A DNA stretch of 64,000 nt from Negaprion brevirostris (Eukaryota). Both the position numbers and the translations under genes were made by a program. The notes under the pieces were generated by a model. It made no database searches, was not told where the DNA came from, and worked only from the letters and a program-made list of their open reading frames with translations. Of the stretch, positions 2,613 to 61,418 are shown piece by piece (position 1 is the stretch's first letter; each line of letters starts with the position of its first letter). Location of the stretch: contig JARDVH010000163.1 in assembly GCA_030324005.1 (NCBI GenBank), positions 102,280,957-102,344,956 of the forward strand, read 5' to 3'.

Positions 2613-4046
2613 ATATAACATTGAACGGCAGGTAGTTTGGACATGTACAATCTAACATATAAAGACCGAATTATATTAGCTTGGGTATGTAAGAACATAG
2701 CAAGGTACTGGATATGTTTAGTAGTTAATGAAGTGATGATCATCAGATATTGTGGCTGAAAAGACTGGATTTATGCAAATTGCTTCTAAGAGCACAATAA
2801 GCAGAGGTAGTACAGATTCTTCATTCTATTGATCAAGCAACACAGGACTGAATGATGTATAGTGTGGCTTTATTGTTTCCTTGGATCAAGAGACAAGATT
2901 GGTTTTTACTTCTCATTTTCTCGAAAGATGACGTAAGCACAACTGTATTTTTCTAAAATAAGCACAGAAATAATTCATTCCAAGAAAGCTCTAAGCCACT
3001 GTCAAGGTGTAAAATTTGATCTGTTTTTAATGTTCACACCACTCAGAATGCTGAAAAGGTTTTGGATTGATATCAACATAATGGTTTTATAAAGTAAGGT
3101 CAAAACCGTAGGCAAGGAATTTAATTTACTGCGAAATTCAACAAAGGCAAAATCTTCCCATGTGGATCAGTGAAGTGGGAATCCCATTGCCAAACAATTT
3201 GTAAGTCTGCTTTCAGCACATGTGGAAACCATTTGGTTTTAAATCAGAAGAATTTAAAACCAATGATTGTTGGATCACTTTATAACTGAGAAAGTAAGAT
3301 AAATACTGCTGTCATCACTATTAACTAACAGAAGAATTCCAAATTATCAAATATATCTTCTTGGGAAGCATTTTTTTAAATAAAGTTTATTACAAGCAGT
3401 TACTGTTTAATGAAGCTGTAGTAGGTGCAATAAAAATTGCTGCACCAGAGTGATAACATGCAGATTTTTGTCTGCGATCTTTAGAAAAAAAGTCCTCATT
3501 CTTAGCTGTGCAGCTGAGTACTGTATCACTGGAGACAAGGCACTTTCCAGATTTAAGGCAACGTTTTATGAAGGCAGACAAAAATAGCATGTTTAGAAAT
3601 GTTCTAATAAAAACAATGCCTCCGTCACTTTACAAAAATACTTTGGTAAAATTTCAGACCAAAATTAATTTTTGATCCAAAACTCAACATTTAAATAAAA
3701 TATGCATTCTGAAAAATAGTGTCAGCTGGTATAAGGATTCCTTGCCCACCTTTACCTAATCTTCAAATGATTGTAAATAAATAGGCTTGGTATTAATTCA
3801 TTTCTAACCACATTGGGGGATTACATTGGAAAATGTGCACACTTTAAAATTAAGTTCAAAGTCAATAAATAGCTATTAGGGCTAAAAATAATAATATTTG
3901 CATAGTTCCACTCAGACCTTAATATATTCAGATTTCTATGGGAAATAGTTGAGAGAAGGCAGAAAAAGGATCAAAGCAACTAACCGTCAAGAAAAACAAG
4001 CACGTTACCATAGTGTGGAAATATTGCTCTACTTCTAGTAACTGAC

Positions 4047-4193
4047 CTTAAACTGTTTCTCAAGCCTCATCTTCCCAGATATTCCTGGAATTAAAATGTT
4101 GTTGACGTAATTGTGTAGTTGAGTGGCAGGTACTTCTGTCTCTTTCCCATGTATTGCTTCCCGCAAGGCTTCATGGATAAAAATGTACTGTTC
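4047..4193 (-). CDS. PTPRG: PTPRG exon: end of D1 and D1-D2 linker (147 nt, phase 0 to 0)
   Basis: ctttgcttttaag|GAACAG...TTTAAG|gtcagt; [49 protein letters not shown]. Confidence 0.95.
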
Positions 4194-4294
4194 CTTAAAA
4201 GCAAAGAACACAGCAAACATGGGGTTGTTTATTTATCTTGTTACAGTCATTTCATGTACAGTCTAATTTTAATATGAGAGGATCAGATGCTATT

Positions 4295-4400
4295 ATTTTT
4301 CAGAGTTATGATTAAAAAGTCATCAATCTGAGATGTTAACACTGTTCTTCTCTCTCCACAAATGCTGCCAAATTGCTGGGTATTCAGGCAATGTTTTCCC
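4295..4400 (+). mobile_element. Penelope-like terminal fragment (degenerate)
   Basis: gttaacactgttcttctctctccacaaatgctgcc..tgctg motif, shared with 58425-58555. Confidence 0.5.
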
Positions 4401-4759
4401 TGGGACACAGCTGTTTCAACACTTCTAATGGGTATTTGGACTCTCAGCCCAAGTATACATAAATATGGGTTGGCAGAGAGCCCAGACATCCTGTATCTTG
4501 GAGAAAATATTGATTGATTGACAGTTCTGGCTCTCTGATCTCCGCTGTTAATTACACAAGGTTAAGTGGTTTCAAGAGTTTGGGGTTGTTGTTTTTGATA
4601 ATGCAAAGGATCTGGACTATTGACAGTTCTATTGACTTGCAGTGAAATGACTTTCATTCAACATAGTAGAAAGTTATAAATAAACTACTTTTATAAAGCT
4701 TTTTTCTTTACACGTACTTATATTACCACAGGCATTATGTCTTTAAGGGATAGCAGCCA

Positions 4760-6620
4760 GCATGTTATCATGAGATGTCGTGTCATATGATCCAGTTTCA
4801 ATTTCACAATGCCAGCATTTACAAAAAGAATTGATGAAAGATTCTCAACTACAGGAACTATAGAAAACCATCATTGAAAAATGCCTGATTCAGTTCAGCA
4901 TGTCCACAAACACATGAGACCATTTTGGCCTTACCATGACATCTCCTGGGAAGTCATTTTTTAAGGCAGGCAGGTCATAATATTGGAATCTTTGCGACCT
5001 ATATTCTTCAACAACTTCAGCACTCACATGTGAACAGAGATCAGGTGAGAAGACTCACAAGACAGACAATCTATTGGCCATGTATGAAGAACGACATTGA
5101 AATCATCAATATGTGAGNNNNNNNNNAAGAACAAATGCCAAATCAACACACACAACCACCGATTCCACATTTCTACTCATCCTTAGTCCAAAATCGCATT
5201 TGACCTCTTTAATTTCCATGGTTCAGATTTCATCATCATTGTTGACTATATACTAAGTACTCCATTATTTACAATTGCACAATACATCAAGCATAACTGT
5301 CATGTACATTCTAAGTGCTACTTTGGTGTGTCTGGAGAGTTCATTATGGATAACGATCTGCAAATTTATTGGTGAACCATTTCAGGATTTCTGTGAGAGG
5401 TAGAATATTGATCACACTACTCCTCATTACTCTGGATCTAACAGCCAAGATAAATAAATGATTTGCATAGTGAAATCCCTAATTCTCAAATGGAGACAGA
5501 CCAAACAAGATCTATATGTTGCAATGTTACATCTGAGAGCGACACCTTTAAGTGAAATTACTCCATGACTGGCAGAGTTCTTGAGACAGTGCATATCTCT
5601 TGACATACTCTTACCCTTTCTGTTCTCTCAGACAGTAGACAGCGACTTTTAAAACTACAAAAGAAAATACCAACAAGTACTATAAAAATGCAGGTACAGA
5701 ATTGCCAAGCTTACAGTTGGTACAGAAAGTTCCCATTCAAGATTTCAGAGAAAGTACATAAGAACATAAGAACATAAGAAATAGGAGCAGGAGTAGGCCA
5801 TCCAGCCCTTCGAGCCTGCCCCNNNNNNNNNNNNNNNNNNNNNNNNNNNNNNNNNNNNNNNNNNNNNNNNNNNNNNNNNNNNNNNNNNNNNNNNNNNNNN
5901 NNNNNNNNNNNNNNNNNNNNNNNNNNNNNNNNNNNNNNNNNNNNNNNNNNNNNNNNNNNNNNNNNNNNNNNNNNNNNNNNNNNNNNNNNNNNNNNNNNNN
6001 NNNNNNNNNNNNNNNNNNNNNNNNNNNNNNNNNNNNNNNNNNNNNNNNNNNNNNNNNNNNNNNNNNNNNNNNNNNNNNNNNNNNNNNNNNNNNNNNNNNN
6101 NNNNNNNNNNNNNNNNNNNNNNNNNNNNNNNNNNNNNNNNNNNNNNNNNNNNNNNNNNNNNNNNNNNNNNNNNNNNNNNNNNNNNNNNNNNNNNNNNNNN
6201 NNNNNNNNNNNNNNNNNNNNNNNNNNNNNNNNNNNNNNNNNNNNNNNNNNNNNNNNNNNNNNNNNNNNNNNNNNNNNNNNNNNNNNNNNNNNNNNNNNNN
6301 NNNNNNNNNNNNNNNNNNNNNNNNNNNNNNNNNNNNNNNNNNNNNNNNNNNNNNCTTGGGTCATCAGCAAATTTCGACACCATACACTCGGTTCCCTCCT
6401 CAAGGTACTTGGCAGCAAACCGAGGTAACAAAGATTTATTCAGAACCAAGGTCCTATGAAGTAATTACACAGAAAGGTGAAATGGTAATGTATAACTGAG
6501 GAAATATCAGATTAGACATTCTTATAGATCCAAAACAATCTTTAAAAAAAGTAGCCAGGGACTTCATCCTGAATGATATACCAGAGACTGAAACTTATAA
6601 GCAACTTATTGATTGCAAAT
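4760..6620 (+). mobile_element. Degenerate Ty3/Gypsy-type pol (integrase) relic, interrupted by a CR1 insertion
   Basis: Frameshifted remnants read LQQL..SH, YWP.M..DIE, KIAFDLF, IIVDY.TKY, DN..QF.GEPFQDFC, NIDHTT; after the CR1, EPRSYEV. These resemble integrase zinc-binding/rve motifs. Confidence 0.65.
5756..6410 (-). mobile_element. CR1 LINE 3' portion (mostly N gap)
   Basis: (CATAAGAA)n tail plus ataggagcaggagtaggcc; minus-strand peptide LEEGTECMVSKFADD (RT F/YADD motif). Confidence 0.85.
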
Positions 6621-7400
6621 TCATCTCAAGAATTTTGAAAATGCAATGTCAACTTATCAAGATACAGGGTCCATTAATCTGAACCTATAAGCAGCAGTTT
6701 ATCCAGAGATTCACCGAGGCAACTTCAGATGGATTGCTGAATTGGAACAAGGTATGCTAAAGATTAAGGACAATCTAAACTGTAAAGTACTTTTTAAAGT
6801 CAAAAACAGCTGCTGAACAAATATGCAAATCAAATCCTCAAGATGTTTGCATTTGAATTGATGACTTGCTATCTTTCTTGGATACTTGATAAAGTCAGCA
6901 CAATACTTGCATTAATGTAATGCCTTTCTCATAGAAGACATCAGGAACAACTGTGCATCAGCAGGGGTTGTCCCACTTTCTATGAATGATCCTATCTTTT
7001 AATTCCATGTGCACTGTGACAGAAACACAAGAGATAGGAGCATGAAAAAATTATTTATTTTTATCGCTACCATTAACTTATCTACTCATGTGCTTCATCT
7101 ATTTTGAGCTATAAATTAGGGGTGTTTCATTTTTGTGGAACCAATAGTGCATCATTACTCTTGACACCATATTCTAAGTATAAACGATTTCTCTCTCAAC
7201 CCACACAGAATTTAAATTCTGCTAAAACTTACCAGCCAGACATCAGGCTTTGAATCTAAATATCACATCTATTTGTTGAAACTGGCCCTGGAGGTGCAAA
7301 CCAGTACTTGTTAAACTGGGTCAAGCCTTATCTTGGTAACTCTGCCCAATTTTAGCCTGAAATCACTACAGACCCAATGCCACTTATAATTAATATTTAC

Positions 7401-7536
7401 CTCTGTCTGGACGAGATAGTTCCTTTGAGTCCTGATGTGTTTAAGAAAGCCGAGGACATTAACTGTGCTTTTATCTTTTATTTGTTTCAGCATGCTATCG
7501 AGCACAATATATGTTCCAGTTCTGCCAACACCAGCA
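7401..7536 (-). CDS. PTPRG: PTPRG D1 exon completing the [11 protein letters not shown]-loop (136 nt, phase 2 to 0)
   Basis: ccctatctag|TGCTGGT...ACAGAG|gtaaat; (S)[45 protein letters not shown]. Confidence 0.96.
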
Positions 7537-9134
7537 CTAGATAGGGAATAAAGGGAGTAAGGAATTTGCATACTATACACAAGCACAGCACGAACAGTGT
7601 AAAAATGTGATCTATCTGCAAGATCAAATGATAATTATGTTGATTAAATTACTATGCTTGCACTATTAAAGGCTTTTTGTTAATTCGATGGAAACACTTC
7701 ATTATATAATGACTGCTCCCTATATTCATTAATAAATGGTTCAATATATGGTATTTAATTGAATACACAAGTGTAATTATTAACAAGAGCAATCTTGTCT
7801 TCAGAAGTGTTATGTTTAGTCAGAAATGATTAACATACACACAGCTGCATGGCCAAACTACTTATCTTGGTTACTTCTCCCAGGATACGCTATCATTTTT
7901 CCCATTTTTTTTCTGTTCCATTTTCCCCTATGTCATCAGGCCTGGTAAATAGGCTCCTCTAATCCCTCTGTCATTGATAGTCTTGAATTGGTCTTTGGTA
8001 ACAACTGAGAATTTCTCAGTGATAAATGGGTCGCCAATACCCGCTCCAATATTCTCCCCATCCTCTACCGCTCCCATCTTTGTGGAAACTCTTGCCACCA
8101 CACTGAGAGGCAAACAAAATCATCAACTCAACAAAGTGGGGACTGAAACAATGTCCCCAAGATTCGGTTGCTCAGTGCATTTGACCACCATCTGCATTAC
8201 CCACCTTTCATTTTCTTCTGCATTGCCTTCAATGAACACGCTGGCCTGGAGTTTCTGCTCATGGTTCAATTGGGAAAAATCTGCCTATAATGCTGCATAC
8301 ACAGAACTGAATTTGCCAAAGACAAATCACGCCAATATTTGCACTCAAACTCATTTGCAAGCCTGAATGTAAAACCTCCCAAGTATCAGGTCAATGAAGT
8401 AATATTTTTGATTGTAATTGATTATTGACTCAAACAACGGGCCCTCAGGATTATTGAATTAAATTAATTTCTGAACATTTGTTCAAGCAATCCCCGCATC
8501 TGAAGACATATGACATCCAGTGATTTCAACTGCCTGCAGGTCACAGGTCTTATGTACCAAGGACAGGCCAAATTACTGAATTTTGACTAATTTAAAATTA
8601 ATTTTAAGCATTCTAATATAGCAACAGTATGTGGCGCAGACCTAATTGAGGCTTCAATTAACTGCTGATCACTACAGCGATACATCATTAATGTAGGATT
8701 ATTGTGACCAAGGATGCCCTTGCAATCAAACTTCTTAATTCCAGAAGAAGAAGAATCGGGATCAGGAGCCATTGGCGGAAATTCACCATGATAACATGGG
8801 AACATGGCTCATTTTCTGAGCAAGAGTTACTTCAGCCAAACTGACTTTTGAACTCAATGTAAACGATCATGAAAGCTCAAGGGTAGGTGGTTCCAAGCAT
8901 AATTCAAAAATGTTTTAAATTCCACAATCTTTTGCATTATTTTAGTCAATTCTGCCTGGATTCTGTGATAATAGGGTGGAAACCATAAACACCAGCACNN
9001 NNNNNNNNNNNNNNNNNNNNNNNNNNNNNNNNNNNNNNNNNNNNNNNNNNNNNNNNNNNNNNNNNNNNNNNNNNNNNNNNNNNNNNNNNNNNNNNNNNNN
9101 NNNNNNNNNNNNNNNNNNNNNNNNTTCCACATAC

Positions 9135-9307
9135 CTGCAATGTACTACTACTGGTCCCATGTCTGGTATCTGAGCCGCAGATGACTTTCTTACAAAGGTA
9201 AGTACAGGAAGTGCATATTCTGGTACCCCCATATCAGGCCACTGTGTATAGTGATATTGGATAACCATCCGTTCATTCTGACGACCCTTGGGGTTTCCCT
9301 TTTGTCC
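9135..9307 (-). CDS. PTPRG: PTPRG D1 exon with WPD loop and catalytic Cys (173 nt, phase 0 to 2)
   Basis: ggttacag|GGACAA...TTGCAG|gtatgt; [57 protein letters not shown](S). Confidence 0.96.
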
Positions 9308-9418
9308 CTGTAACCACAGTTTATCAGCATCAATGAATATATAAAATATGTGAATATGTAGCACTTTTATCTGGAGGACGGAGATGAATCTAAAACTGTG
9401 CCAACCAGGGCATCTTGT

Positions 9419-9722
9419 GGGTGGCACGGTGGTTAGCACTGCTGCCTCATGGCGCCAGGGACCCGGGTTCAATTCCAGTCTCTGTGGAGTTTACACATTC
9501 TCCTTGTGTCTGCGTGGGTTTCTTCAGGGTGCTCTGGTTTCTTCCCACAGTCCAACGATGTGCGGATTAAATTGATTGGCCATGCTAAATTGACCCTAAC
9601 GTCAGGGGGATTAGCAGGGTAAATGTGTGGGGTTACAGGAATAGAGCCTGGATGGGATTGTGGTTGGTACAGACTTGACGGGCCGAATGGCCTCCTTCTA
9701 CATTGTAGGAATTCTATGATTT
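9419..9722 (+). mobile_element. HE1-like V-SINE with CR1-derived tail
   Basis: tRNA head, V-core, 3' gggccgaatggcctccttct..ctgtaggaattctatgatt. Confidence 0.88.
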
Positions 9723-10431
9723 TATCACGACTAGACCCAACGCTCAAGTGTAATATTTATTTCTGCAATTTAGATTGAAATATGCAATTACAAGACAAAA
9801 AAAGTGAACATTTTGAATATCTTCAGAAAATTCAATAAAGTCAGAATTAAACCACCTAACGCTGATTTATACTTTAAATAGTCAACATCAAGAAAAAATG
9901 ATCGTATTACAAATTCACTTATTTATTAGGTGGCAATTCAGAACTGAACGGCAATGAAATCAATGCCATCTTTATTCCAAATTGCTCTTACGTTGTAACG
10001 CCTGTAAACAGACAAAATTTTGATTATCTTATGACACATTTTTGTAACCTCCCTTCCAAAGGTCTTCCTAGATGTTTTGGCTGTGGGGTCTAGGAGGTGG
10101 AAGATGGACTGATTTGGGGTCTGAGGGGGAGAGGGCTGTGCAGTTGGTTGAGTAGTGAGTCTGTTGGGGGAGAAGGCTGAGTGAGAGTCTGAAGGGGAGG
10201 GGAGATGGGCCTTAGTGGGATGTCTGAGGAGGAAGTCTGAGGGGAGAAGGTCAGGTCGGGTAACCCTCATGCCTGCATGGTGTGGGTGGGTGTAACCTGT
10301 TATTTGAGTGGTAATGGGAAGGATGCCCCCCTTTTGCTGAGGGGTTGGTGATGCTGCCCTGGATCTTTCAGCCCACCTGGTACATTTCCTGCTGAAAAAG
10401 GCTGGTGAATGGCAGAGGGTGTGTTTTAACG

Positions 10432-10728
10432 TTTTTAAAGTTTATTTATTAGTCACAAATAGGCTTACATTAACATTGCAATGAAGTTACTGTGAAAATC
10501 CCTGTGTTGCCACACTCCGGCACTTGTTAGGGTACTCTTGAGGGAGAACTTAGCACAGTCAATGCATTTAACCAACACATTTTTCAGATTGTGGGAGGAA
10601 ACATGAGCACCCGGAGGAAACCCAAACAGGCACAGGGAGAACATGCAAACTCCGCACAGACGTGACCCAATCTGGGAATCGAGCCCAGGTCCCTAGCGCT
10701 GTGAGGCAGCAGTGTAACCACTGTGCCA
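10432..10728 (-). mobile_element. V-SINE, same subfamily as 1835-2119, nested in a GC-rich DNA-transposon-like relic (about 10020-10920)
   Basis: Reverse complement of head/core; tail aaagtttatttattagtcacaa.taggcttacattaac. Confidence 0.85.
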
Positions 10729-10990
10729 ATGTGGTCTGGTGAATCGGCCAACAATCCCACTAACTGTATTACAATTAGCAGGTTTGCATAATTATTAGGT
10801 AGCCACCTGCTATGAGTCCGGCCAGATGGGTGAATCCCGACAGCCCTCATGCCCGGCGGGAATCCTGATTTTTAGTTGACGATTAGGAATCGGGATTCCT
10901 GCCACCCATCTGACAAGGACAGTGAATCCCCTCCTCCGCTTGTGTTTGTTTAAGAAGTATAAAAAGACACATTTATATTTCTACACTTAC

Positions 10991-11125
10991 CTTTTTAACT
11001 TTGGTGTTCCTTATAGTGAAGCGGCGTACAGTGCAACACGCCCGTACTTTTGTACTCTTCAAGGTGACAATAATATTGCCGTACTCTTCGTTGTTCTCAC
11101 TTGGCCAGTACTGATCACATTTTCG
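10991..11125 (-). CDS. PTPRG: PTPRG D1 exon (135 nt, phase 0 to 0)
   Basis: gtttttttttag|CGAAAATGT...AAAAAG|gtaagt; [45 protein letters not shown]. Confidence 0.96.
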
Positions 11126-11297
11126 CTAAAAAAAACAAGGAATAGAGTAGTTAAATTCCATTCAGAATGTGCCACAACAAAATGTCAAAATTACAATACA
11201 TTTTGTGCTAGCTATGGCTCCATTCATAACACACTTTCTTCTGAGTGAGAAGCTTGTGGGTTNNNNNNNNNNNNNNNNNNNNNNNNNNNNNNNNNNN

Positions 11298-11772
11298 ATT
11301 GCAGTATTGAAGGAGTGTTGCACTGTCAGGAGTGCTGTCCTTGGATAAAGTGCTGAAATGAGGGACTATCTGCCCTCTCAGGTGAATGTATAAGACCCCA
11401 CAATTTCTTCTCTAAAACAATGGGGGAGCAATGCTCAGTGTCATAGTCAATATTTATCAGTCACAAAACAGATTATCTGGACATTATCATATTGCTGCTT
11501 GTGGAAGCCTACTCTGTGCAAATCCCATTTACAACAGTGACTACACTTCAGAAGTACTGCATTGGTACTTGGCCCCTTAGTGTCAAGGAGATTATCAGGG
11601 TAAATAAGTGGGGTTACGGAGATTAGGCCTGGGTAGGATTGTTGTCGGTGCAGACTCAATGGACTGAATGGCCTTTTTCAGCACTGTAGGGATTCTATAA
11701 TTAGCTGAAGCCAATTTGGGACATCCTGTGGCCATACAAGCTGCTGTATAAAAACAAATCCTTTTTTCTTTT
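11298..11772 (+). mobile_element. Deu-domain (SacSINE1-like) SINE with nested 3' half of an HE1 SINE (about 11571-11700)
   Basis: gtgttgcactgtcagg..ctgccctctcaggtg..cagattatctgg.cattatcatattgctgcttgtgg..acaacagtgactacacttca; nested piece ends gcactgtagggattctat. Confidence 0.7.
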
Positions 11773-11879
11773 CAATGCAATTAACAGGCTGTGACAGTTG
11801 TATTTGAACTTCCAACTCTCACTTAATGTTAATTACTGGGCTGACGACACTTTGGTCTCTGCATAGCATGAATTATTTA

Positions 11880-12089
<210 letters not shown>

Positions 12090-12647
12090 TCAAGGGGAGA
12101 AAAGAAAATTAAAAAAAAACATTGATGTACAACCCAAAAATTCAAACACTGAAAACGTAAACTTCCATCATAACCGCTTTAAGCTGTGAAGGCTCTGACA
12201 TTTTGGTAACATAAAACCCATTTTCATTTCTTCGGCAGAATCTGAACTAAAAATTAGTGCAACTTCGCTGCACTAATATAAAAATTCAATTATTCAAATA
12301 ACAGACAATTTATATCCATATAATTTCAAGATTTTTCTTGACTCCATATCTTCTATTCTGCTGGAACAGAAAATTCTGCTTTAAAAATACAGTTTTATGC
12401 AAGCACAGGAACTGGATTGAAGATTGAAACTAATTTTATCTACGTTTTATTACAAAAAAAGTGAGAAAAAGAAGAATTTTAGCTTACTCGTCTCTGCCTG
12501 AGCTACAGTTAAACCAAGAGCTTTGAAACCAAACAACATTTACAAATAGTGTTCAAATCCATGATTCACCTAATACCTAATTCAGTTCTAGAATTCTTTA
12601 AATTGAATGAGCATGACAAATACAGTAAATACAAAATAATGACTTAC

Positions 12648-12730
12648 ATCGACATAATTGGCATTGATGTAGTCACTGTGCTTTGAATCCTTTCCTGGTA
12701 TTGGCCTTAGCTTAACTCTGCTGTGATCAT
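12648..12730 (-). CDS. PTPRG: PTPRG D1 exon (83 nt, phase 1 to 0)
   Basis: ccctctgcag|ATGATCAC...GTCGAT|gtaagt; (Y)[27 protein letters not shown]. Confidence 0.96.
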
Positions 12731-12863
12731 CTGCAGAGGGAGAAATATTAATCCACAAGAATAAATCAGTTTGCTCTTCATGTATATTTCAAATGTTACT
12801 TCACAAACTATAGATGATGACAGATATTTAACAAATAAAACAGTACACTAATCAGTGAGGCCC

Positions 12864-14473
12864 GTTTTTACATTTTTGACATGATTCAATTCAAAATATT
12901 ATTTAGGGAATGCTCAGTTGGCATGTGGTTCAGAATAATGCCTACATTATGGATATAACTTCCATTCGAATTCGGATCTGCTTCCTAACCCTGTCTGAGA
13001 GTGGATGGCAGTAGAAAACTACCACTGCCAAAAGAACTACCAGTAAAATAGTTTAGAATGAAGTATTAGCAGGCAAGGTGGCAAGTAAAGACCTGCCTTT
13101 GGGAAGAGTGCACTTAAATGAATGAATGAACACTGTAAACACAAAACAAGGACAATCAATGCCACTGAAATAATTTACTACTGCTATTTGGGGCTAAATA
13201 ATAATTTTCAGAAGCATTTTTAATCATTATAGAATCTTGATTGAACAACCCCAACAAGCTCAATGTTTTGTATACATGCTGCATTCCTTCACCACTCAAT
13301 TAAGGGAAATTTCAGTGCAATATATTTGAAAGACTGATTCAGATATTAATATATTTGAATCCAGCATAGTCTTACATGCTACAATGTTGATGTATCGGTT
13401 TTTGTGCTTGTTATCTGGATGGTTGGAATGTTCTGATGTGATGTTCATATCAGTTGTACAGCGCTGCACTTCCTAAAAATTGAAAAAGGGAGAAGGAATA
13501 CTTCATTGATTTCCTATTTCAGAGCATTTACATCCAATAGTTGGAAACACTACACATTCATTTTACCTACACAGATTATCATATACAAGTGAATACGTAG
13601 CAACAGAAAATATATATTTCAGGCTTTTTAAAGATGGAGACATTTCATTCGAAATATTGGACGAATTATGTGGTGTTTAATTATGGTTCAAAATGAAAAT
13701 TGAATTCCCATGAAGACTGAATGCATTTACCTAGTCAATAGTCAAGCCATACAGAATTAGGACATTGTAGCATGGACACTCAGCTTGCACCATCTACTTT
13801 CCGCACCTTGGGCAGCAGGTGAAACGCTGCGATTGGCCTCCATGCTATTGGATTTGGGCAAGGAATATAGTTTTTGCTTTTATTCCTGTCTAGCACTTCC
13901 TGTTGGAAGTCTGATCCAGGATTATCTGGGTCAATTGTAAATCCATTGCTTTTGAGAAGTATATCCCTTAGATGGGGCACAAGAGGGTGCAGGACTTGAG
14001 CAAAAACCTATACTTTTAACAGAGACAAGCAATTAAAATGTTTCAAAGAATAAAAAGGCAATGAAATGCTCTTCCTCGACAAGAAAAACACCATCAAAAA
14101 GGTTGGAGATGGCAGTTNNNNNNNNNNTAAAATAAATTTATATAAATTTAAAAGGCTGGTAGTTCCAGTTTTGAAGAGTTTAGTAGTTGCTTGTAAATAT
14201 GATGGGGTAGGCTTTCATTCTTCCTGCTTCGGCATTAAGCATTGTGAGAGAGGAGGACAAAACAGAAAATCTGATTGGGGGGGAATCACACTTTCCCTTT
14301 AGTCGATCCTTCTTGCAGACCTTTCTTTTGTGCATCAAGCAGGCAATGCTTAATGTCCATGTTGTAAAGTTAAACACTTGTCTGAATGTATGTATACATT
14401 TTGGCAATTGGTTGCATCATTATCGGTTTTTACATTTTTGACATGATTCAATTCAAAATATTATTTAGGGAAT
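12864..14473 (+). repeat. Exact 48-bp direct repeat pair (12864-12911 and 14426-14473)
   Basis: GTTTTTACATTTTTGACATGATTCAATTCAAAATATTATTTAGGGAAT present twice, 1562 bp apart. Confidence 0.9.
13376..13472 (-). CDS. PTPRG: PTPRG D1 exon with wedge and KNRY loop (97 nt, phase 0 to 1)
   Basis: atttttag|GAAGTG...GTAGCAT|gtaaga; [32 protein letters not shown](Y). Confidence 0.96.
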
Positions 14474-21864: not shown

Positions 21865-21956
21865 CTCAAATTCTTCAGAGAATCCATGTTGATTGTTGGT
21901 ATACAGTTCATTGATGTGCTTTACAAACTGCTTGACTGGAATGGCCTCCATATCAT
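21865..21956 (-). CDS. PTPRG: PTPRG exon preceding D1 (92 nt, phase 1 to 0)
   Basis: cccttatag|ATGATATG...TTTGAG|gtaagt; (D)[30 protein letters not shown]. Confidence 0.96.
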
Positions 21957-29780: not shown

Positions 29781-32519
29781 GTAGATAAGGCAGATGAAGT
29801 TAATTTTTTTAATTACAGATAACTATATGATTTAATTTTGACCAGAGATGTTTAAAAATTAATGCATCTATATTTTCCATTTCTAGTTTTAAGTGATTCA
29901 TTATCTGAATGGGCCTCTGCAAGATCACATCCTTGATGCTGTGTGATAAGAAGCACAGTGCAATCAAGAGCAAGTCCAGAGCTCCAGCTCCATTACTTTT
30001 TACATTCCAAGTAAACATATCCGAATGCAGTAAGACATTCTATCCCAGTTCCCTACTTTCCTGACCATTCGTCCACCCACTTAATGGCAAATACCAGGAC
30101 CATTTCTTTGGGACCCCAGCAGCAGCCTCTTTGCTGCCCAAAATCCTGCTGCAGTCAGTTAATGCTTTCCAACAGCTTTGGACATGAGTCTTATGGTGGC
30201 TGTGCAGGTGAAGCTCAGGTGTTGAAGTCTCCTGTGCCTAAGACTACAGGGGGTCATACAGTTGATCATCCACCTTGACTCCTCACCCAACACGGTTTTC
30301 AATCGACCCCTCGCCTGCACAGCTTTCAGTGAGAGTTGCAATCAGGACTATAGTACTGAGTTAGATTGGGGTGCAAGTTCTATGAGTATAGTTNNNNNNN
30401 NNNNNNNNNNNNNNNNNNNNNNNNNNNNNNNNNNNNNNNNNNNNNNNNNNNNNNNNNNNNNNNNNNNNNNNNNNNNNNNNNNNNNNNNNNNNNNNNNNNN
30501 NNNNNNNNNNNNNNNNNNNNNNNNNGCCCATTGCCTGCTGTTATACAGACAAACACAGCATAATGTATTGTATTAATACATCTGCTGAGAAAGATCCGTT
30601 AATGGAGTCCAGAGACTAGTCAAAACAGGAGGATCCTCTTAATAAATGTTGTAGGAGCTTTTGGCTATTAGGTTTGTAGTTTTCTCTGCAAATTGTAGTT
30701 GCAATGTCCTCACTTGCAACAAATTTACTGGCTAACTCTTCACAGCCCCTTACACAAGGAGGAGTCTCTTAAGAGCACAATGGTGGAAGACAAGGAAGTA
30801 TCTTTGGCCGACATTGTAAAGTTCAAATTTATTGTAATTCCTTCCAACAGCAAGTTCTTGTATGAGAAAAATCAGAAGCGCTAAATTTGAGAAGCAAAGA
30901 GGGGCAACTAAGGAATAGGCCAGTACACATTCATGTGCTGGACCCATTAAAACTGAACTATATGGTGCTGTTTGAAACAACATGATTAATATTTCTGATA
31001 GGTTTAGGAATTTTGATCTACTAACGTTCAAAGGTCCCTGACAAATATTTTGCCATGTTTCAATAGCTGAATTGCTCCCTCCAAACGGTCCTGAAGCTGG
31101 ATGTGCTTCATCATAGGTGTGCATAGCAAGATAATTTATCAGGTTATAAAAATACAGAGAATATTGCAAACTGAACTATTTATTGGCTAATACTTAATGT
31201 TGGATTGTATCCTACTGACTCTAACGTTGTCAGGTAATTAAGCGTGCTGTAGCTTTGAAAATGTGATTATTGTTGCCAGTGTCTGAATGCACCTCCCTTG
31301 AGCTGACACTGCTACCGTGTGCTGCTTGGTTGCTTTCTTATTAGAAATGCTGTATTGGTTCATTTGATAAACTGTTTATACAAAGACATCAGCATAATAG
31401 TGGAAGTTCCCTTTATCAATAAATTGGCAGGATGTGGTTTTGTTTTTATACTTCCCACATTTCAGATGGAATTTAATTGAATCGCTCTTGGCGAGTTAGG
31501 TAGCAGGGGNNNNNNNNNNNNNNNNNNNNNNNNNNNNNNNNNNNNNNNNNNNNNNNNNNNNNNNNNNNNNNNNNNNNNNNNNNNNNNNNNNNNNNNNNNN
31601 NNNNNNNNNGGGGTTATTTAATCAGGTGGGAGGGTGGCCTGCCACCAACTCTCCTTCACTCTAATTAAGTCTATGGCGGAAGGGCCCAGTGGCAGCCACC
31701 CTGTCCTGTCACCTTTTGAGGCTCTCAAGTGGGCAATTAATGCTCAGTTAAGGGCCTCACTGCCAGTGATGCTACTAATTCAGCTACTAAGGCAGTTTGG
31801 GAACTAGGCATGTGAGGAACTTGACAAATCCATGTGCAGGTTCCCAGGTTGTCCCATTTTCAAAGGCTCTGATTGAAGGACCTGACATCAGGATGGGGGT
31901 GTAACTGCCGACAGCTACTGACATGACCTTGATGCTGACCCTCCTTACTCACAACTCCAAATTGCAAACTCCTTCCTGCCATCAGTCACCTGTGACCTAG
32001 GTTCCAGTGGTGATACTAGGGCTCAGGTGGATGTTATGTTGGAAACAGATACCGCCCCTCTGATTAGTTGGTAGATCCTGGCCAGCAGGATCACTGTTCC
32101 CGGGTTCTTGATTCCAGGAAAGATCCCCCACTGTACAGTTAACTGTCTGAGTGGTACTTAATCCTGCGGGCCTTCCCTAAAACAGGCAACTTCTTTCCAA
32201 TTTCAAGTACAATGCTGTGTAGAAGAATCATCAGAAGCCAAGGTCAGTTCCCAGAAAAGAACTGAAAAATTGGAAAGGTGACCACCCTGTACTTCTTTCA
32301 GGCACATCCTCTCGGTATTGGTCGAAGCCGTGGAGCAATCTCCAGCTTATCCTCTAATGGGACAATCTCCACCAGATAATATAACAAAAACAGCAAGACC
32401 ATCTCCACCAAAGCAATCTTTGTTTAAAACAACTCATTTAAAAAAAGATAGGTATTAAACTTGTGCCTGTGGGTTAGAACGGACATCCAGTTACGTTCAA
32501 GGTTCTGTGTTACTTTCTA

Positions 32520-33275
32520 GGTTTGTGGATGACACCAAAATTGGTGGTGTGGTGGACAGTGAAGGAGGCTATCTCAGATTACAACGAGATCTTGATCAAC
32601 TGGGCCAGTGGACTGACAAATGGCAGATGGAGTTTAATTCAGATAAATGTGAGGTGTTTCACTTTTGTGAGACCAACCAGGGCAGTGTTTGCACAGTTGA
32701 TGGTAGGTACCGGGGGAGTTTTGTCGAACAAAGAGGTGCAGGTACATAGTTCCTTGAAAGTGACATCACAGGTAGACAGGGTGGCGTTTGTCACACTTGC
32801 CTTCATTGGTCACAGCATTGAATACAGGAGCTGGGACTTACGTTACAACTGTAGATGACATTGGTAAGACCATGCTTGGAGTACTGCATACAGTTCTGGT
32901 CACCCTGCTATAGACAGATGTTATTAAACCGGAAAGGGCGCAAAAAAGATTTACATGTTACCAGACTTGAAGGTTTGAATTATGAGAGGCTGGATAAGCT
33001 GGGACTTTTTTTCCCTTGAGCTTAGGAGAATGAGGGGAGGCCCTATAGAGATTTATAAAATCATGAGGGGTATAGATAAGGTGAATAGCCAAGATTCTTT
33101 CTTCAGTGAAGGGGAGTCCAAAACGAGAGGGCATATGTTTAAGTGACAGGGGAAAGATGTAAAAGGGATCTGTGGGGTAGTCAAACGGGACTAGTTCAGT
33201 TTAGGAAACCTGCTTGGCATGGACAAGTTGGATCTAAGGGCCTGTTTCTGTGCTGTATATCTCTATGATTCTATG
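32520..33275 (+). mobile_element. CR1 LINE 3' portion
   Basis: FVDDTKIGGVVDSE.GYLRLQRDLDQLGQW..KWQMEFN; tail ctctatgattctatg. Confidence 0.9.
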
Positions 33276-36334: not shown

Positions 36335-36426
36335 CTGGAATCGGGATAATGGGAATGCTTTCATTAGGAACCACACGTGGTGAACTGCTATCCTCCACAT
36401 AGAAGTGTGCTGTCTGAAAACACTTT
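36335..36426 (-). CDS. PTPRG: PTPRG juxtamembrane exon (92 nt, phase 2 to 1)
   Basis: ttctcctcag|AAAGTGT...ATTCCAG|gtaagt; (R)[30 protein letters not shown](D). Confidence 0.96.
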
Positions 36427-36941
36427 CTGAGGAGAAAATAAACAATGTACTTATTCTCTGAAAAACTGTATGCATGGACCAGAATTTAAGTCTTTGATAT
36501 TGTGGGTGCTTGTAAATAAATCCCTGGCACACTGCCATTATTTGAATTTATAGTTGATTGCTAATCATTCTAAGATTTCTGATGAACCAAAGAATTAAAA
36601 TGACTGTTAGTCTAAATTCTTTCTCTTTCGTTGAAGTGCAGCAACAGCAATATCCACTAGTTTTAAAACCTATCATAGTTACACAACTATCCTATTTTAA
36701 CTTAAAGTTTTATAAAACATTATAAGCCCTCTGTCTTTTATTCTGAGGCCATATGGAACAATGATACAAAACTGAATTACAGCTGCTGAGAAAGAGAAAT
36801 CAATAGATATGCTCCTAAATGGCCTGAAAAGCAGCCTGGGGCCCAAGGAGAATGAAAATATCACATTACAAAGGAGGATTCAAACAAAACAGTTTCTGCC
36901 AGTAAAAGATGTGTGGAACCACAAACCTCCCAATATTTTAC

Positions 36942-37033
36942 CTGTACTTGATGCAAAGTAACGAGCACAAATTGGTCATCATTGAGAAAGCACGGACAAG
37001 AAAATCACACAGAGCTGTGAACAGCCTTTGCAT
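36942..37033 (-). CDS. PTPRG: Putative alternative first coding exon of a short intracellular PTPRG isoform
   Basis: catcaccATG (A at -3), in-frame TAG 27 nt upstream, 30 open codons MQRLFTALCDFLVRAFSMMTNLCSLLCIKY, then AG|gtaaaa phase-2 donor matching the phase-2 acceptor at 36426. Sequence looks non-repetitive. Confidence 0.55.
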
Positions 37034-37584
37034 GGTGATGTTGACTGAAGCTGGACTCTAAAACTCCAGCGTCATTGCTCATCTGATTTAATGACTTTCC
37101 TTGGGCTGGAACTGAATATCAAATGAGCCTCCCTGTGCGCTTGTGACAGGAGGAGGGACTTCTATGTTCATCAGGGGCTTTTAACAAAAGGATTATTATG
37201 CTGCAGTGATGCCCTTAATAAACCGTTTGGGAGCACCAGCATGCAGCCCTAACATTGCTGATTCCTGATTCATGTAAATTTACTGGTCTCACCCTGAAAA
37301 GAAGAAATGCCCTTAATGTTTTTCCAATGCAGTGTTCTGTTATACAGAAGGATCTCACACTGTATAATTGCTGAGCAGTAATTACTGTCTGCTAATTACG
37401 GCACTCACCATAACTCAACTACAGCTAAAGGCGTTGATTATTAGTGGGTGTCTTATTTGGTTTTATCATGCAGGATATTAAAATACTTGGTTATCAGTGT
37501 ACATAGGAATAAATAATACCAATTCCAAATATGCTCGTGACTGTAGTATTCTAAAAACTGTACAGATTCAATTTCTTTTTTTAA

Positions 37585-38570
37585 AATTATTCATTCATAG
37601 AGTGCAGACAATGCAGGTAATGTCCACATTTATTGTCCATCACTAAGTGTCCTTGAGAAGGAAATGACATGAACCTCCATCTTGATTTGCTCCAGTCTGT
37701 ATGGTGAAGCTCTGTTAGAAAGGGAATTCCAGTATTTTGACGATGAACATGATATTTCCAAGAAAGGATGGCCTGTAATTTGAGGAGGAAGTTGGAGATG
37801 TACCTACTGTACTTGTTCATCCAGATTCTTCTAGGCAGTAGAGTTTGCAAGTTTGGGAGTTGCTGTTGAAGAAGTCTTGGGGAGTCACTACAGTGTCTCT
37901 TGCAGATGGGTACACATTAGCCAGGCTGCACCAGTGTGGCAAAAGCAAATGTTTCAGCTAGTGGATAGCATATCAATCAAATGGGCTGCTTTGTTCTTGC
38001 ATGTTGCTGAGCATTTTGTATTGTTGGAGTTGCACTCATTCAGGTAAGTGAGAAACAGCCATAGCCATATGTGCCTGGTAGATGCTGGAAAGGTTGTAGG
38101 CAGGCAGTCTGGAGATCAGTTACCTACTACAGAATTCCCAACCACTAATCCACTCCTATAGTGACAGCTGGCCCAGTTATGTTTCTGGTTGATGGCAACC
38201 CCCAGGATGTTGATGGTGGGGGATTCAATGATGGAATAATGTTGATGTCAAGGGGAACTGGTTAAACTCTCTCCTGGTAAAGATATTCATTGTCTGTGTG
38301 GGCATCAGCATAAACACAAGTGTTGTTCAAGTCTTGCTGCATGTGGGGAGAAGGCTGTTCTACATATCTGAAGTGTGAATGGTACGGAACACTGTATAAT
38401 CATCAGCTAACATCCCCACTTCTGACCGTCTGTTGGATGGAAGGTCATTGTTGAATAGCTGACGATGGCTGGGCCTAGGACACTGCCCTGAGGAATGCCT
38501 GCAGTGATGATTGATTCAGCATAGGCTGGTAGGACAGTAATTAGCCAGATTGGATTTGTCCTGTAACATT
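37585..38570 (-). mobile_element. Non-LTR retrotransposon 3' portion (same family as 26645)
   Basis: Shared 3' end; internal tgggcctaggacactgccctgaggaa reads PQGSVLGP on the minus strand. Confidence 0.75.
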
Positions 38571-39724: not shown

Positions 39725-41080
39725 ATAAGAAAATAAATCATAGGAGCAGGAATAGACCATGGTAGAATAGACCATGGTCTACAGTAGACCATTTAATTAG
39801 ATCATGGCCCTTTCTTGCCTGTGCTCCAAAGTCCTTGACTCTCGTCAATCAAAATGCTGTCTAACTCAGCCTTGAATATATTCAATGACACAGCCTCCAC
39901 TGCTCTCTGTGGAACAGAATTCTAAATATTAATGTCCACCTGAGAGAGAAATTCCTTCTCAAATCCCTCTCAAATGGGAGACCATTCATTTTATAAAATA
40001 TGCCTCCTGGTTCCAGATTCCCCCATGAAAGGAAACCTCCTCTCAGTGTCTACCTGATCAAGTCCCTTCAGGATATTACATGTTTCAATAAGATCAGCTC
40101 TCATTCTTTGAAATGTCAATGCATATAGGTCCAACCCCTTTAACCTTTCCTCATAATGTGTGCTTTCCTCACCCCTTCATCCCAGGAATCAATCCAGTAA
40201 ACCTTCGTTGAATTGCATCCAAGGATCATAAATTCCTTCTTAAATAAGACAATCAGAACAGTACACAGCACTCTAGGTGGTGCCTCACCAATGTTTTATT
40301 TGGTTGTTGCAAGATTTTCTGACTTTAATACTCCATTCCCCTTGCAATAAAGACCAATATTCTATTTGCTTTCCTAATTACTTGCTGTATTTACATGNNN
40401 NNNNNNNNNNNNNNNNNNNNNNNNNNNNNNNNNNNNNNNNNNNNNNNNNNNNNNNNNNNNNNNNNNNNNNNNNNNNNNNNNNNNNNNNNNNNNNNNNATA
40501 TTCTATTTGCTTTCCTAATTACTTGCTGTATTTACATGCTGATTTTTTCTGAATCATGCACAAGGATACCTACATTGGGGCTGAGTGCACATCTGTGCAG
40601 ACTAGAATCACACATCACCCCCCAACATGAAATTGACATATCTTCTATGCCAGAGGATTTCAAAGGGATCTTCTCACATGTTCAGCTTCTGACAGTGAGA
40701 AAGGAAAATCTTCATTGCAAGATGAAGTGCTGCAATGATTCAAAGGCCTGCTAGATGACCAGGAGGCATGCAGATTAAAGAGACCGGGCCATTGGCTTCA
40801 TTAGCATTTTTCAGGTGGATAAATCCCACCTGACAGATGCTGAGCGGGAAACACTCTCGTTTTCACAGCAGCATGGGCCCTTAGCCTCAAAATGAGAGAA
40901 TTCAGCCTTACATGTATTGGTTTTCCTTCATCCATCCTGTTTGCTATAGTTTCAAAGAATGTTAATAAGTTTGCCAAACATGATTTCCCTTTTAGAAAGC
41001 CATGTTGACTATGCCTGATTGCTTCCTCATTTTCTAAATGTCCTGTTACTACCTCCTTAACAGTGAATTCCAGCATTTCC
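39725..41080 (-). mobile_element. CR1 LINE fragments (39725-40570 and 40908-41080) separated by another repeat
   Basis: 3' end cataggagcaggaatag; ORF IRHSQHGFLKGKSCLANLLTFFE. Confidence 0.8.
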
Positions 41081-61279: not shown

Positions 61280-61418
61280 CTCCAGTAAACTAGCACCCCT
61301 ACGAGAAGAATCAAGCAGACAAAAGTCAAAGCTGAGACAACCACCAATGGAATTATCCATTCCATCTTGCTGGAAGGTGAATAAGGTTGTGTAGCCATAC
61401 TTGAAGATGACCTGTCTT
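61280..61418 (-). CDS. PTPRG: PTPRG transmembrane exon (139 nt, phase 1 to 2)
   Basis: ttctgattctctgcag|AAGACAGG...TACTGGAG|gtaagg; translates x[45 protein letters not shown](R). Not in the ORF track. Confidence 0.95.

Follow-up and report, generated by a model that had tools for sequence, protein, structure and literature searches.

Several receptor-type protein tyrosine phosphatase (PTP) genes give rise to short catalytic forms through alternative promoters. Cytoplasmic PTP-epsilon, PTPROt and short PTPRR are examples in the available text of PMC9900141, where PTPRE and PTPRR appear as receptor PTP genes and the intracellular PTPRE isoforms are assigned to a distinct promoter. For PTPRG, a form without the transmembrane (TM) segment has been described in mouse: Forrest et al. 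(2006) reported a 'catalytic' Ptprg transcript, AK144283 (= G630007L03), which was confirmed by 5'-RACE and labelled a 'predicted cytosolic catalytic form' (PMC1431701). In the junction data available from that study, the mouse acceptor at 8797942 is joined to the TM exon in 9 of 18 sequences, to an 87-nt optional exon in 4, and in the remaining 5, all cDNA/ESTs, to a donor 605 nt upstream of the juxtamembrane (JM) exon; the acceptor exon (exon 15) measures 92 nt and the mouse TM exon 133 nt (PMC1431701). Clone G630007L03 is absent from both junctions that follow the JM exon, at which its four companion ESTs are present (PMC1431701). The 2006 tissue list for the short form is not relied upon here, since it derives from a sequence tag that may fail to separate different 5' ends.

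The same isoform was later treated by Taki, Boron and Moss (2024) as Ptprg-V2 (NM_001347593 / NP_001334522), a protein of 667 aa in which 13 residues are encoded by exon 14a, and was characterized as 'cytoplasmic', 'exclusively intracellular' and likely embryonic (PMC11215419). According to the available text of that article, V2 failed to amplify from three hippocampal preparations and is predicted in rat (X6), rabbit, guinea pig and hamster, whereas no human orthologue is listed, whether validated or predicted; the string 'palmit' does not occur in it (PMC11215419). The available portions of two 2022 reviews mention only four rat isoforms (PMC8773835, PMC8766859). The mouse internal start carries 0 CAGE tags vs. 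97 at the main promoter, the two starts being 636 kb apart, and Ptprg is listed among the top 20 switching genes of a cerebellar start-site study (PMC5470264), which may bear on the sites at which the internal promoter is active. Literature searches on the accessions, names or core peptide of the short form returned only PMC1431701 and PMC11215419, and among the matches listed, with most subscription journals outside the coverage, no paper dealt with conservation of the short form outside mammals or with its acylation.

The window analyzed here is a 64,000-nt stretch of the genome of the shark Negaprion brevirostris, in which ten exons, from the TM exon to the end of the D1 domain, align on the minus strand to a PTPRG-like protein of Heptranchias (sharpnose sevengill shark). 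The TM exon is 100% identical to the Heptranchias protein and those D1 exons whose match is not diluted by intron flanks are 86–100% identical, and by this alignment the host gene is PTPRG, an R5 receptor PTP. The 139-nt TM exon (61280–61418, supported by the alignment and by a loose end of sequencing run X7) is the upstream donor of the full-length receptor, and a contig of run X7 connects it to the 92-nt JM exon (36335–36426), which holds the common acceptor, is placed by a contig and by orthologue alignment, and encodes Lys32 and Cys33 in the numbering used below. A further 92-nt exon (21865–21956; alignment, and loose ends of X1, X2 and X7) leads toward the wedge region, and seven more exons, located by tblastn with approximate ends, encode the D1 catalytic domain (4044–13472), the D2 exons being outside the window.

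Within the TM–JM intron, an ATG at 37033 on the minus strand (context ATCACC-ATG-C) opens 30 stop-free codons plus AG down to 36942, followed by GTAAAA, so that the coding part of a candidate internal first exon spans 36942–37033 and ends in a phase-2 donor (AG|GTAAAA). An in-frame TAG lies upstream (37060–37058), a 515-nt GT-AG intron (36427–36941) separates the donor from the acceptor at 36426, and three cysteines occupy positions 9, 23 and 27 of the 30-residue peptide, all exactly as the original prediction, made from the DNA letters alone, had described. Its phase argument was equally sound, the TM exon (61418–61280) likewise ending in phase 2. Considered by itself, the feature is weak and does not stand out: the ~24.85-kb TM–JM intron contains 18 open reading frames (ORFs) that begin with ATG, run for 30 codons or more and end at a phase-2 GTRA donor, and this exon is the one among them with both a purine at −3 and AG|GT, although these filters were picked after the exon was known. 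What raises it above chance is a spliced contig together with conservation. The exon region is single-copy in a DNA search of the genome. A second match in the genome (L003, E 0.81) was dismissed as chance, with no PTP exon nearby. Pfam searches gave no match for the exon ORF or for the catshark fragment discussed below, and only phosphatase families for the homologous finch protein.

Splicing was assessed in the contigs of four sequencing runs (X1, X2, X6 and X7) out of 22 listed, none of the 22 being on record as RNA. One 211-nt contig of run X2 joins 36942 to 36426 with GT-AG ends, exactly at the predicted sites and in one of the four runs; this run comes from one study of a related species, with an RNA status guessed by the search tool, and the shorter side of the joint is 28 letters against the tool's bar of 31. 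The junction that the original prediction had proposed to look for is thus seen in one contig of a relative. Coding differences listed between X2 and the window amount to one silent change and one Met18 to Val replacement. Further X2 contigs continue unspliced to 37278, a contig of X6 carries the exon unspliced, and one of X1 carries part of the upstream sequence. These contigs cannot show a start; their unspliced run to 37278, the in-frame TAG and the lack of an upstream TM segment in all 12 core-bearing proteins described below are consistent with a first exon. The predicted in-frame fusion to the JM exon, giving a PTPRG without ectodomain or TM segment, is backed by the contig, by orthologous proteins and by the mouse junctions.

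Comparison with mouse indicates that this exon is almost certainly the PTPRG internal first exon orthologous to exon 14a. Mouse Ptprg-V2 uses the same acceptor and phase, its first exon lies 605 nt upstream of the 92-nt JM exon compared with 515 nt in the shark, and the protein similarly has neither ectodomain nor TM segment. Removing the 13 exon-encoded residues from the 667 of mouse V2 leaves 654, precisely the remainder of the 684-residue finch form after its 30 exon-encoded residues; given this agreement and a 134-nt mouse exon whose ORF begins at nt 94 (13 codons + 2 nt), the mouse start corresponds to position 18 of the shark peptide. Mouse V2 therefore differs from the shark and finch forms in having 13 exon residues instead of a frame that stays open for a further 17-residue extension to Met1. 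In this comparison mouse enters by length arithmetic, and the ground-squirrel protein P0156 stands in for the mouse peptide wherever the mammalian core is compared. The isoform is hence already known, in RefSeq and in two papers (PMC1431701, PMC11215419), although the original prediction had not placed it among the classical PTPRG isoforms; the shark exon is an added member, and the corresponding catshark peptide is already in GenBank as a hypothetical protein.

A search with the JM exon recovered 526 proteins, of which the best 120 were examined first; among the matches listed, most have a TM segment before the JM exon (at least 94 by the first pattern used). Against this background, a homologue of the 30-residue exon peptide precedes the JM exon in a 684-aa finch protein (A0A8U8C9E1), the same exon is spliced to the JM exon in a 681-aa turbot protein (A0A8D3C5S4), and a 75-aa hypothetical protein of catshark (scyTo_0016761) is identical at 29 of 30 positions. 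An isoform X3 of the catfish Tachysurus and the ground-squirrel protein A0A8C9QB37 (P0156) have the C-terminal part of the peptide, hereafter the core, directly before the JM exon, and seven unnamed ORFs (P0140–P0146) carry the core and stop at the donor. Overall, the core was found in at least 12 of 211 stored proteins, five of them named proteins in which it adjoins the JM exon (from a shark, a bird, two teleosts and a mammal) and none with a TM segment upstream; these counts are lower bounds, as short forms hide in 90% clusters with at most 15 members each among the matches listed. When 1.84 billion representatives were searched by a word-free method, three matches came back, each of them to the internal exon. 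The database models are automatic annotations without functional comment, and their start codons differ from model to model.

Conservation is markedly uneven along the peptide. Residues 19–30 are identical to the shark at 12/12 positions in catshark, 11/12 in finch, 10/12 in turbot and 9/12 in both catfish and squirrel, compared with 17/18, 7/18 and 1/16 for residues 1–18 in catshark, finch and turbot, respectively. We accordingly divide the coding part into a core (36942–36979; Met19–Tyr30 with Cys23, Cys27 and Lys29, plus the split Arg codon), defined by cross-species identity, and an N-terminal extension that varies by lineage (36980–37033; residues 1–18), defined by hydrophobic moment and length arithmetic. 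The conserved unit reads Met19-x-x-[LV]-C-S-L-L-C-[ILM]-K-Y, then Arg, Lys/Arg and the JM cysteine. Cys23 and Cys27 are invariant in all 12 core-bearing proteins, Cys9 is not conserved, and all 177 stored proteins containing the JM exon retain its cysteine (Cys33). Conservation in other vertebrates of the ATG, frame and donor was one of the checks named in the original prediction, and the frame, Met19 and the phase-2 junction are indeed kept in five lineages, with core exchanges limited to conservative ones (I/L/M, L/V). Sharks and bony vertebrates separated more than 400 million years ago. That the exon occurs in sharks, teleosts and birds and that its cysteine core is invariant indicates long-term selection, in contrast to the 2024 view, as given in the available text, of a cytoplasmic and likely embryonic variant confined to rodents and rabbit and lacking a human orthologue (PMC11215419).

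The same unevenness bears on how the N-terminus might contact a membrane. The original prediction invoked an amphipathic helix, from the spacing of L4, F5, L8, F11, L12 and F16. This periodicity is present, and the hydrophobic moment reaches 0.56 over residues 1–18 (0.64 for the best 11-residue segment), but the latter does not exceed what shuffled versions of the peptide yield (p = 0.12), and the pattern is not shared, given the 7/18 and 1/16 identities in finch and turbot. Over residues 1–18 the moment falls to 0.19 in finch, where Pro5 and Gly6 intervene, and 0.25 in turbot (shuffles, p = 0.45–0.54), so that a high and conserved moment was not found across window, finch and turbot. As the main membrane tether, such a helix has in its favor that Met1 offers the best start context, that catshark keeps 17 of the 18 residues and that finch has a Met1 at the same distance; yet the exon contributes just 13 residues to the mouse protein and 12 to the catfish model, and Cys9 is not among the conserved cysteines. 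We thus consider this explanation improbable, and the helix at most a shark-specific helper. By length arithmetic, residues 1–18 appear to be mostly 5' UTR in mouse, and among the sequences compared they are amphipathic only in sharks; the amphipathic helix as a conserved anchor does not survive the comparison.

A second way of reaching the membrane would be a reverse signal anchor (type III TM), as in the 60-kDa PTPRR isoform (PMC9900141, available text). The finch sequence comes closest, with a best 19-residue Kyte-Doolittle mean of 2.18 followed by basic residues, but the window peptide reaches 1.38 and that of turbot 0.87, whereas the true TM segment scores 3.06. The stretch is broken up by Asp10 and Arg14, the 13 residues of the mouse form are too few, and a conserved run of about 19 uncharged hydrophobic residues was found in neither the window nor turbot. 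A signal anchor is accordingly very unlikely, and the conserved unit itself appears, from its length and composition, too short and too weakly hydrophobic to span a membrane.

The core has a different character. It contains no acidic residues and is hydrophobic all round, with a moment of 0.12 in the window peptide, 0.07–0.13 in the window and four of the five named orthologues, and 0.33 in catfish. Counted from Met19, cysteines stand at 5, 9 and 15; Cys23 and Cys27 are 40 degrees apart on a helical wheel, and Cys23, Cys27 and Cys33 are flanked by Lys29, Arg31 and Lys32. An AlphaFold2 model of the finch isoform from a 13-row alignment had a mean pLDDT of 30.9 and offers no structural evidence. 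Palmitoylated anchors such as those of GAP-43 and stathmin-2 combine an N-terminal pair of cysteines with basic or hydrophobic residues, and S-acylation follows no strict consensus. The core resembles GAP-43, stathmin-2/SCG10 and PSD-95 in its paired cysteines near the N-terminus with hydrophobic and basic neighbors, a likeness that serves as analogy only. By that analogy, palmitoylation would plausibly rest on Cys23, Cys27 and Cys33.

On balance, we favor a reading in which the internal first exon yields a predicted PTPRG phosphatase of ~670–685 residues without ectodomain or TM segment that is likely S-acylated at the cytoplasmic face of the membrane; for the lipid-anchor mechanism itself, i.e. 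S-acylation of the core, we see the chances as even. Transcription would start inside the TM–JM intron, as 5'-RACE indicates in mouse and as we infer for sharks, and the donor would join the JM acceptor in phase 2, as in one contig of a relative and five mouse cDNA/ESTs. Translation would then begin, judging from annotation, at Met1 (sharks, birds) and/or at Met18/19 (mouse, catfish model). Cys23, Cys27 and Cys33, set among Leu, Ile and Tyr beside Lys29, Arg31 and Lys32, would replace the end of the TM helix and likely be palmitoylated, and because the core takes the place of that helix end, the wedge and D1 would stay similarly near the membrane. The enzyme would presumably reach membrane substrates free of control by the carbonic-anhydrase-like ectodomain. 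PTPROt keeps a TM segment, and the N-terminus of cytoplasmic PTP-epsilon is polar. Short PTPRR also keeps its TM segment according to the available text (PMC9900141), unlike short PTPRG, which has a cysteine-containing hydrophobic core in place of the TM end.

The foremost alternative to a lipid-anchored enzyme is a soluble cytosolic short PTPRG comparable to PTP-epsilon, whose core would bind a partner, pack on D1 or the wedge, or signal degradation or redox state. A stretch of twelve residues is too short to cross a membrane, and PTPRE sets a precedent for intracellular isoforms from a distinct promoter (PMC9900141, available text); both published descriptions also point this way, speaking of a 'predicted cytosolic catalytic form' (PMC1431701) and of an 'exclusively intracellular' protein (PMC11215419). 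As far as the available text of these sources goes, however, the labels are predictions from the missing TM segment and not measurements, and a stretch that is uncharged and hydrophobic all round, with two invariant cysteines beside basic residues, would be unusual for a soluble terminus. We therefore regard the soluble form as unlikely, though deserving weight. Under the favored lipid-anchored reading, the conserved core, unreported so far, would lead to a sharp, testable prediction, involving three cysteines and 13 residues, of membrane anchoring by analogy with known acylated proteins.

Which methionine is used bears on the length of the N-terminus. In sharks, Met1 has a better start context than Met18/19, which makes it likely that a form with all 30 residues and a helper helix is produced as well, while Met18/Met19 is, on comparative grounds, the likely ancestral start. 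Depending on the start site, five to nine ATGs lie upstream; one opens a 25-codon upstream ORF (37082–37007) that runs across Met1 in another frame and terminates 25 nt short of Met18, and which could, speculatively, feed the shorter Met18/19 start. We assign 37034–37278 (minus strand), with these ATGs and the in-frame TAG, to the 5' UTR or promoter-proximal sequence of the internal exon, parts of it being covered by unspliced contigs of X1, X2 and X6. For ~150 nt, the sequence at 37034–37200 resembles the upstream part of the unnamed finch-like ORFs, a similarity that continues through a frameshift and stops and includes seven identical codons immediately before Met1; this segment is likely a conserved promoter or 5' UTR element. 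The 160–200-codon upstream frames of P0140–P0146 were considered as a longer N-terminus and rejected, being shifted in frame relative to one another and interrupted by stops in the shark.

Similarity that reaches upstream of the ATG through frameshifts and stops, together with the five to nine upstream ATGs, could also be read as the mark of conserved regulatory DNA that is transcribed only as a minor by-product, with little or no protein made. The 0 CAGE tags in mouse and the absence of V2 from hippocampus (PMC11215419, available text) fit such a reading, but the frame, Met19 and the phase-2 junction persist through five lineages with conservative core exchanges, and the exon 14a donor accounts for 5 of the 18 mouse sequences at the acceptor (PMC1431701, available text). 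We rate a purely regulatory role as highly improbable.

The mouse start maps near 37075. A free scan of the window with the mouse RACE primers gave nothing above background; the published primer corresponding to mouse exon nt 4–24 matches at 10/21 positions at 37073, one base off the colinear place, a score equaled at 2% of intron positions. A placement of primer F at exon nt 1 with a 13/27 match was discarded, as the 2024 primer table says nt 2 and a one-base indel would be required, leaving a weak hint only. A TATAA stands at 37344 and TTTATTAA at 37222, both upstream of the exon; a sigma-70 promoter scan was set aside as inapplicable to a vertebrate.

Elsewhere in the genome, a paralogous JM exon, which we take from family knowledge to belong to PTPRZ1, is 63% identical, and a core profile searched against the 20 kb spanning the paralogue's TM–JM intron gave no match (best score 24.8). 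The same profile, which contains the window peptide itself, scores 62.6 at the exon and 23.0 at the next-best place in the PTPRG intron. Because the paralogue's TM–JM intron shows no such exon, either the PTPRG gene probably gained it or the paralogue lost it. The paralogue's TM and JM exons lie at G000:C73:44203200-44223199 (L006, L007), ~10.7 kb apart, and its JM exon also opens with a basic-basic-Cys motif.

If the short form is made as proposed, it has consequences for mouse genetics. In the available descriptions, the Ptprg knockout cassette sits immediately 3' of exon 1 (PMC7541084), and a gene trap is inserted between exons 2 and 3, its effect having been measured with primers in these two exons (PMC3447766). 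As 636 kb separate the internal start from the main one and both alleles lie ~600 kb upstream, these null-type alleles would likely spare V2. Ectodomain antibodies cannot detect the short form, and a blot with a cytoplasmic-domain antibody names in its legend, the part of that source available, only a ~180 kDa band in brain membranes. A C1060S catalytic-site knock-in (exon 21), expected to disable both forms, has only a mild behavioral phenotype according to the available text, and this sets a limit on how vital short-form catalysis can be. A spared short form, if real, would bear on claims that PTPRG is dispensable for development and on the separation of bicarbonate sensing from basal phosphatase activity. 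We offer only tentatively, and with considerable doubt, the full hypothesis that jawed vertebrates possess a second, lipid-anchored, ligand- and bicarbonate-blind PTPRG predating the split of sharks and bony fishes, with the 12-residue cysteine core in place of the TM helix, that its description as a minor, cytosolic and embryonic variant of rodents is a misclassification, and that 'null' mice still make it, their mild phenotypes reflecting loss of the receptor only.

Some further features of the gene were observed. Several database models (P0018, P0065, P0148 and P0155) begin at a Met inside the TM exon and would retain the TM segment without an ectodomain, and the shark TM exon (61280–61418) has Met codons at matching places; these models may reflect either incomplete annotation or a third class of isoform. 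The mammalian 29-residue optional exon 14 was not detected with five queries in 36427–61279 of the window, this being a fast-evolving exon and an intron with N gaps. A short dispersed repeat fragment at 37612–37666, common to many contigs of all four runs, is unrelated to the exon, and fragments of a LINE reverse transcriptase, presumably of the CR1 family, lie in introns at 32459–32858, 39991–40176 and 40801–41079.
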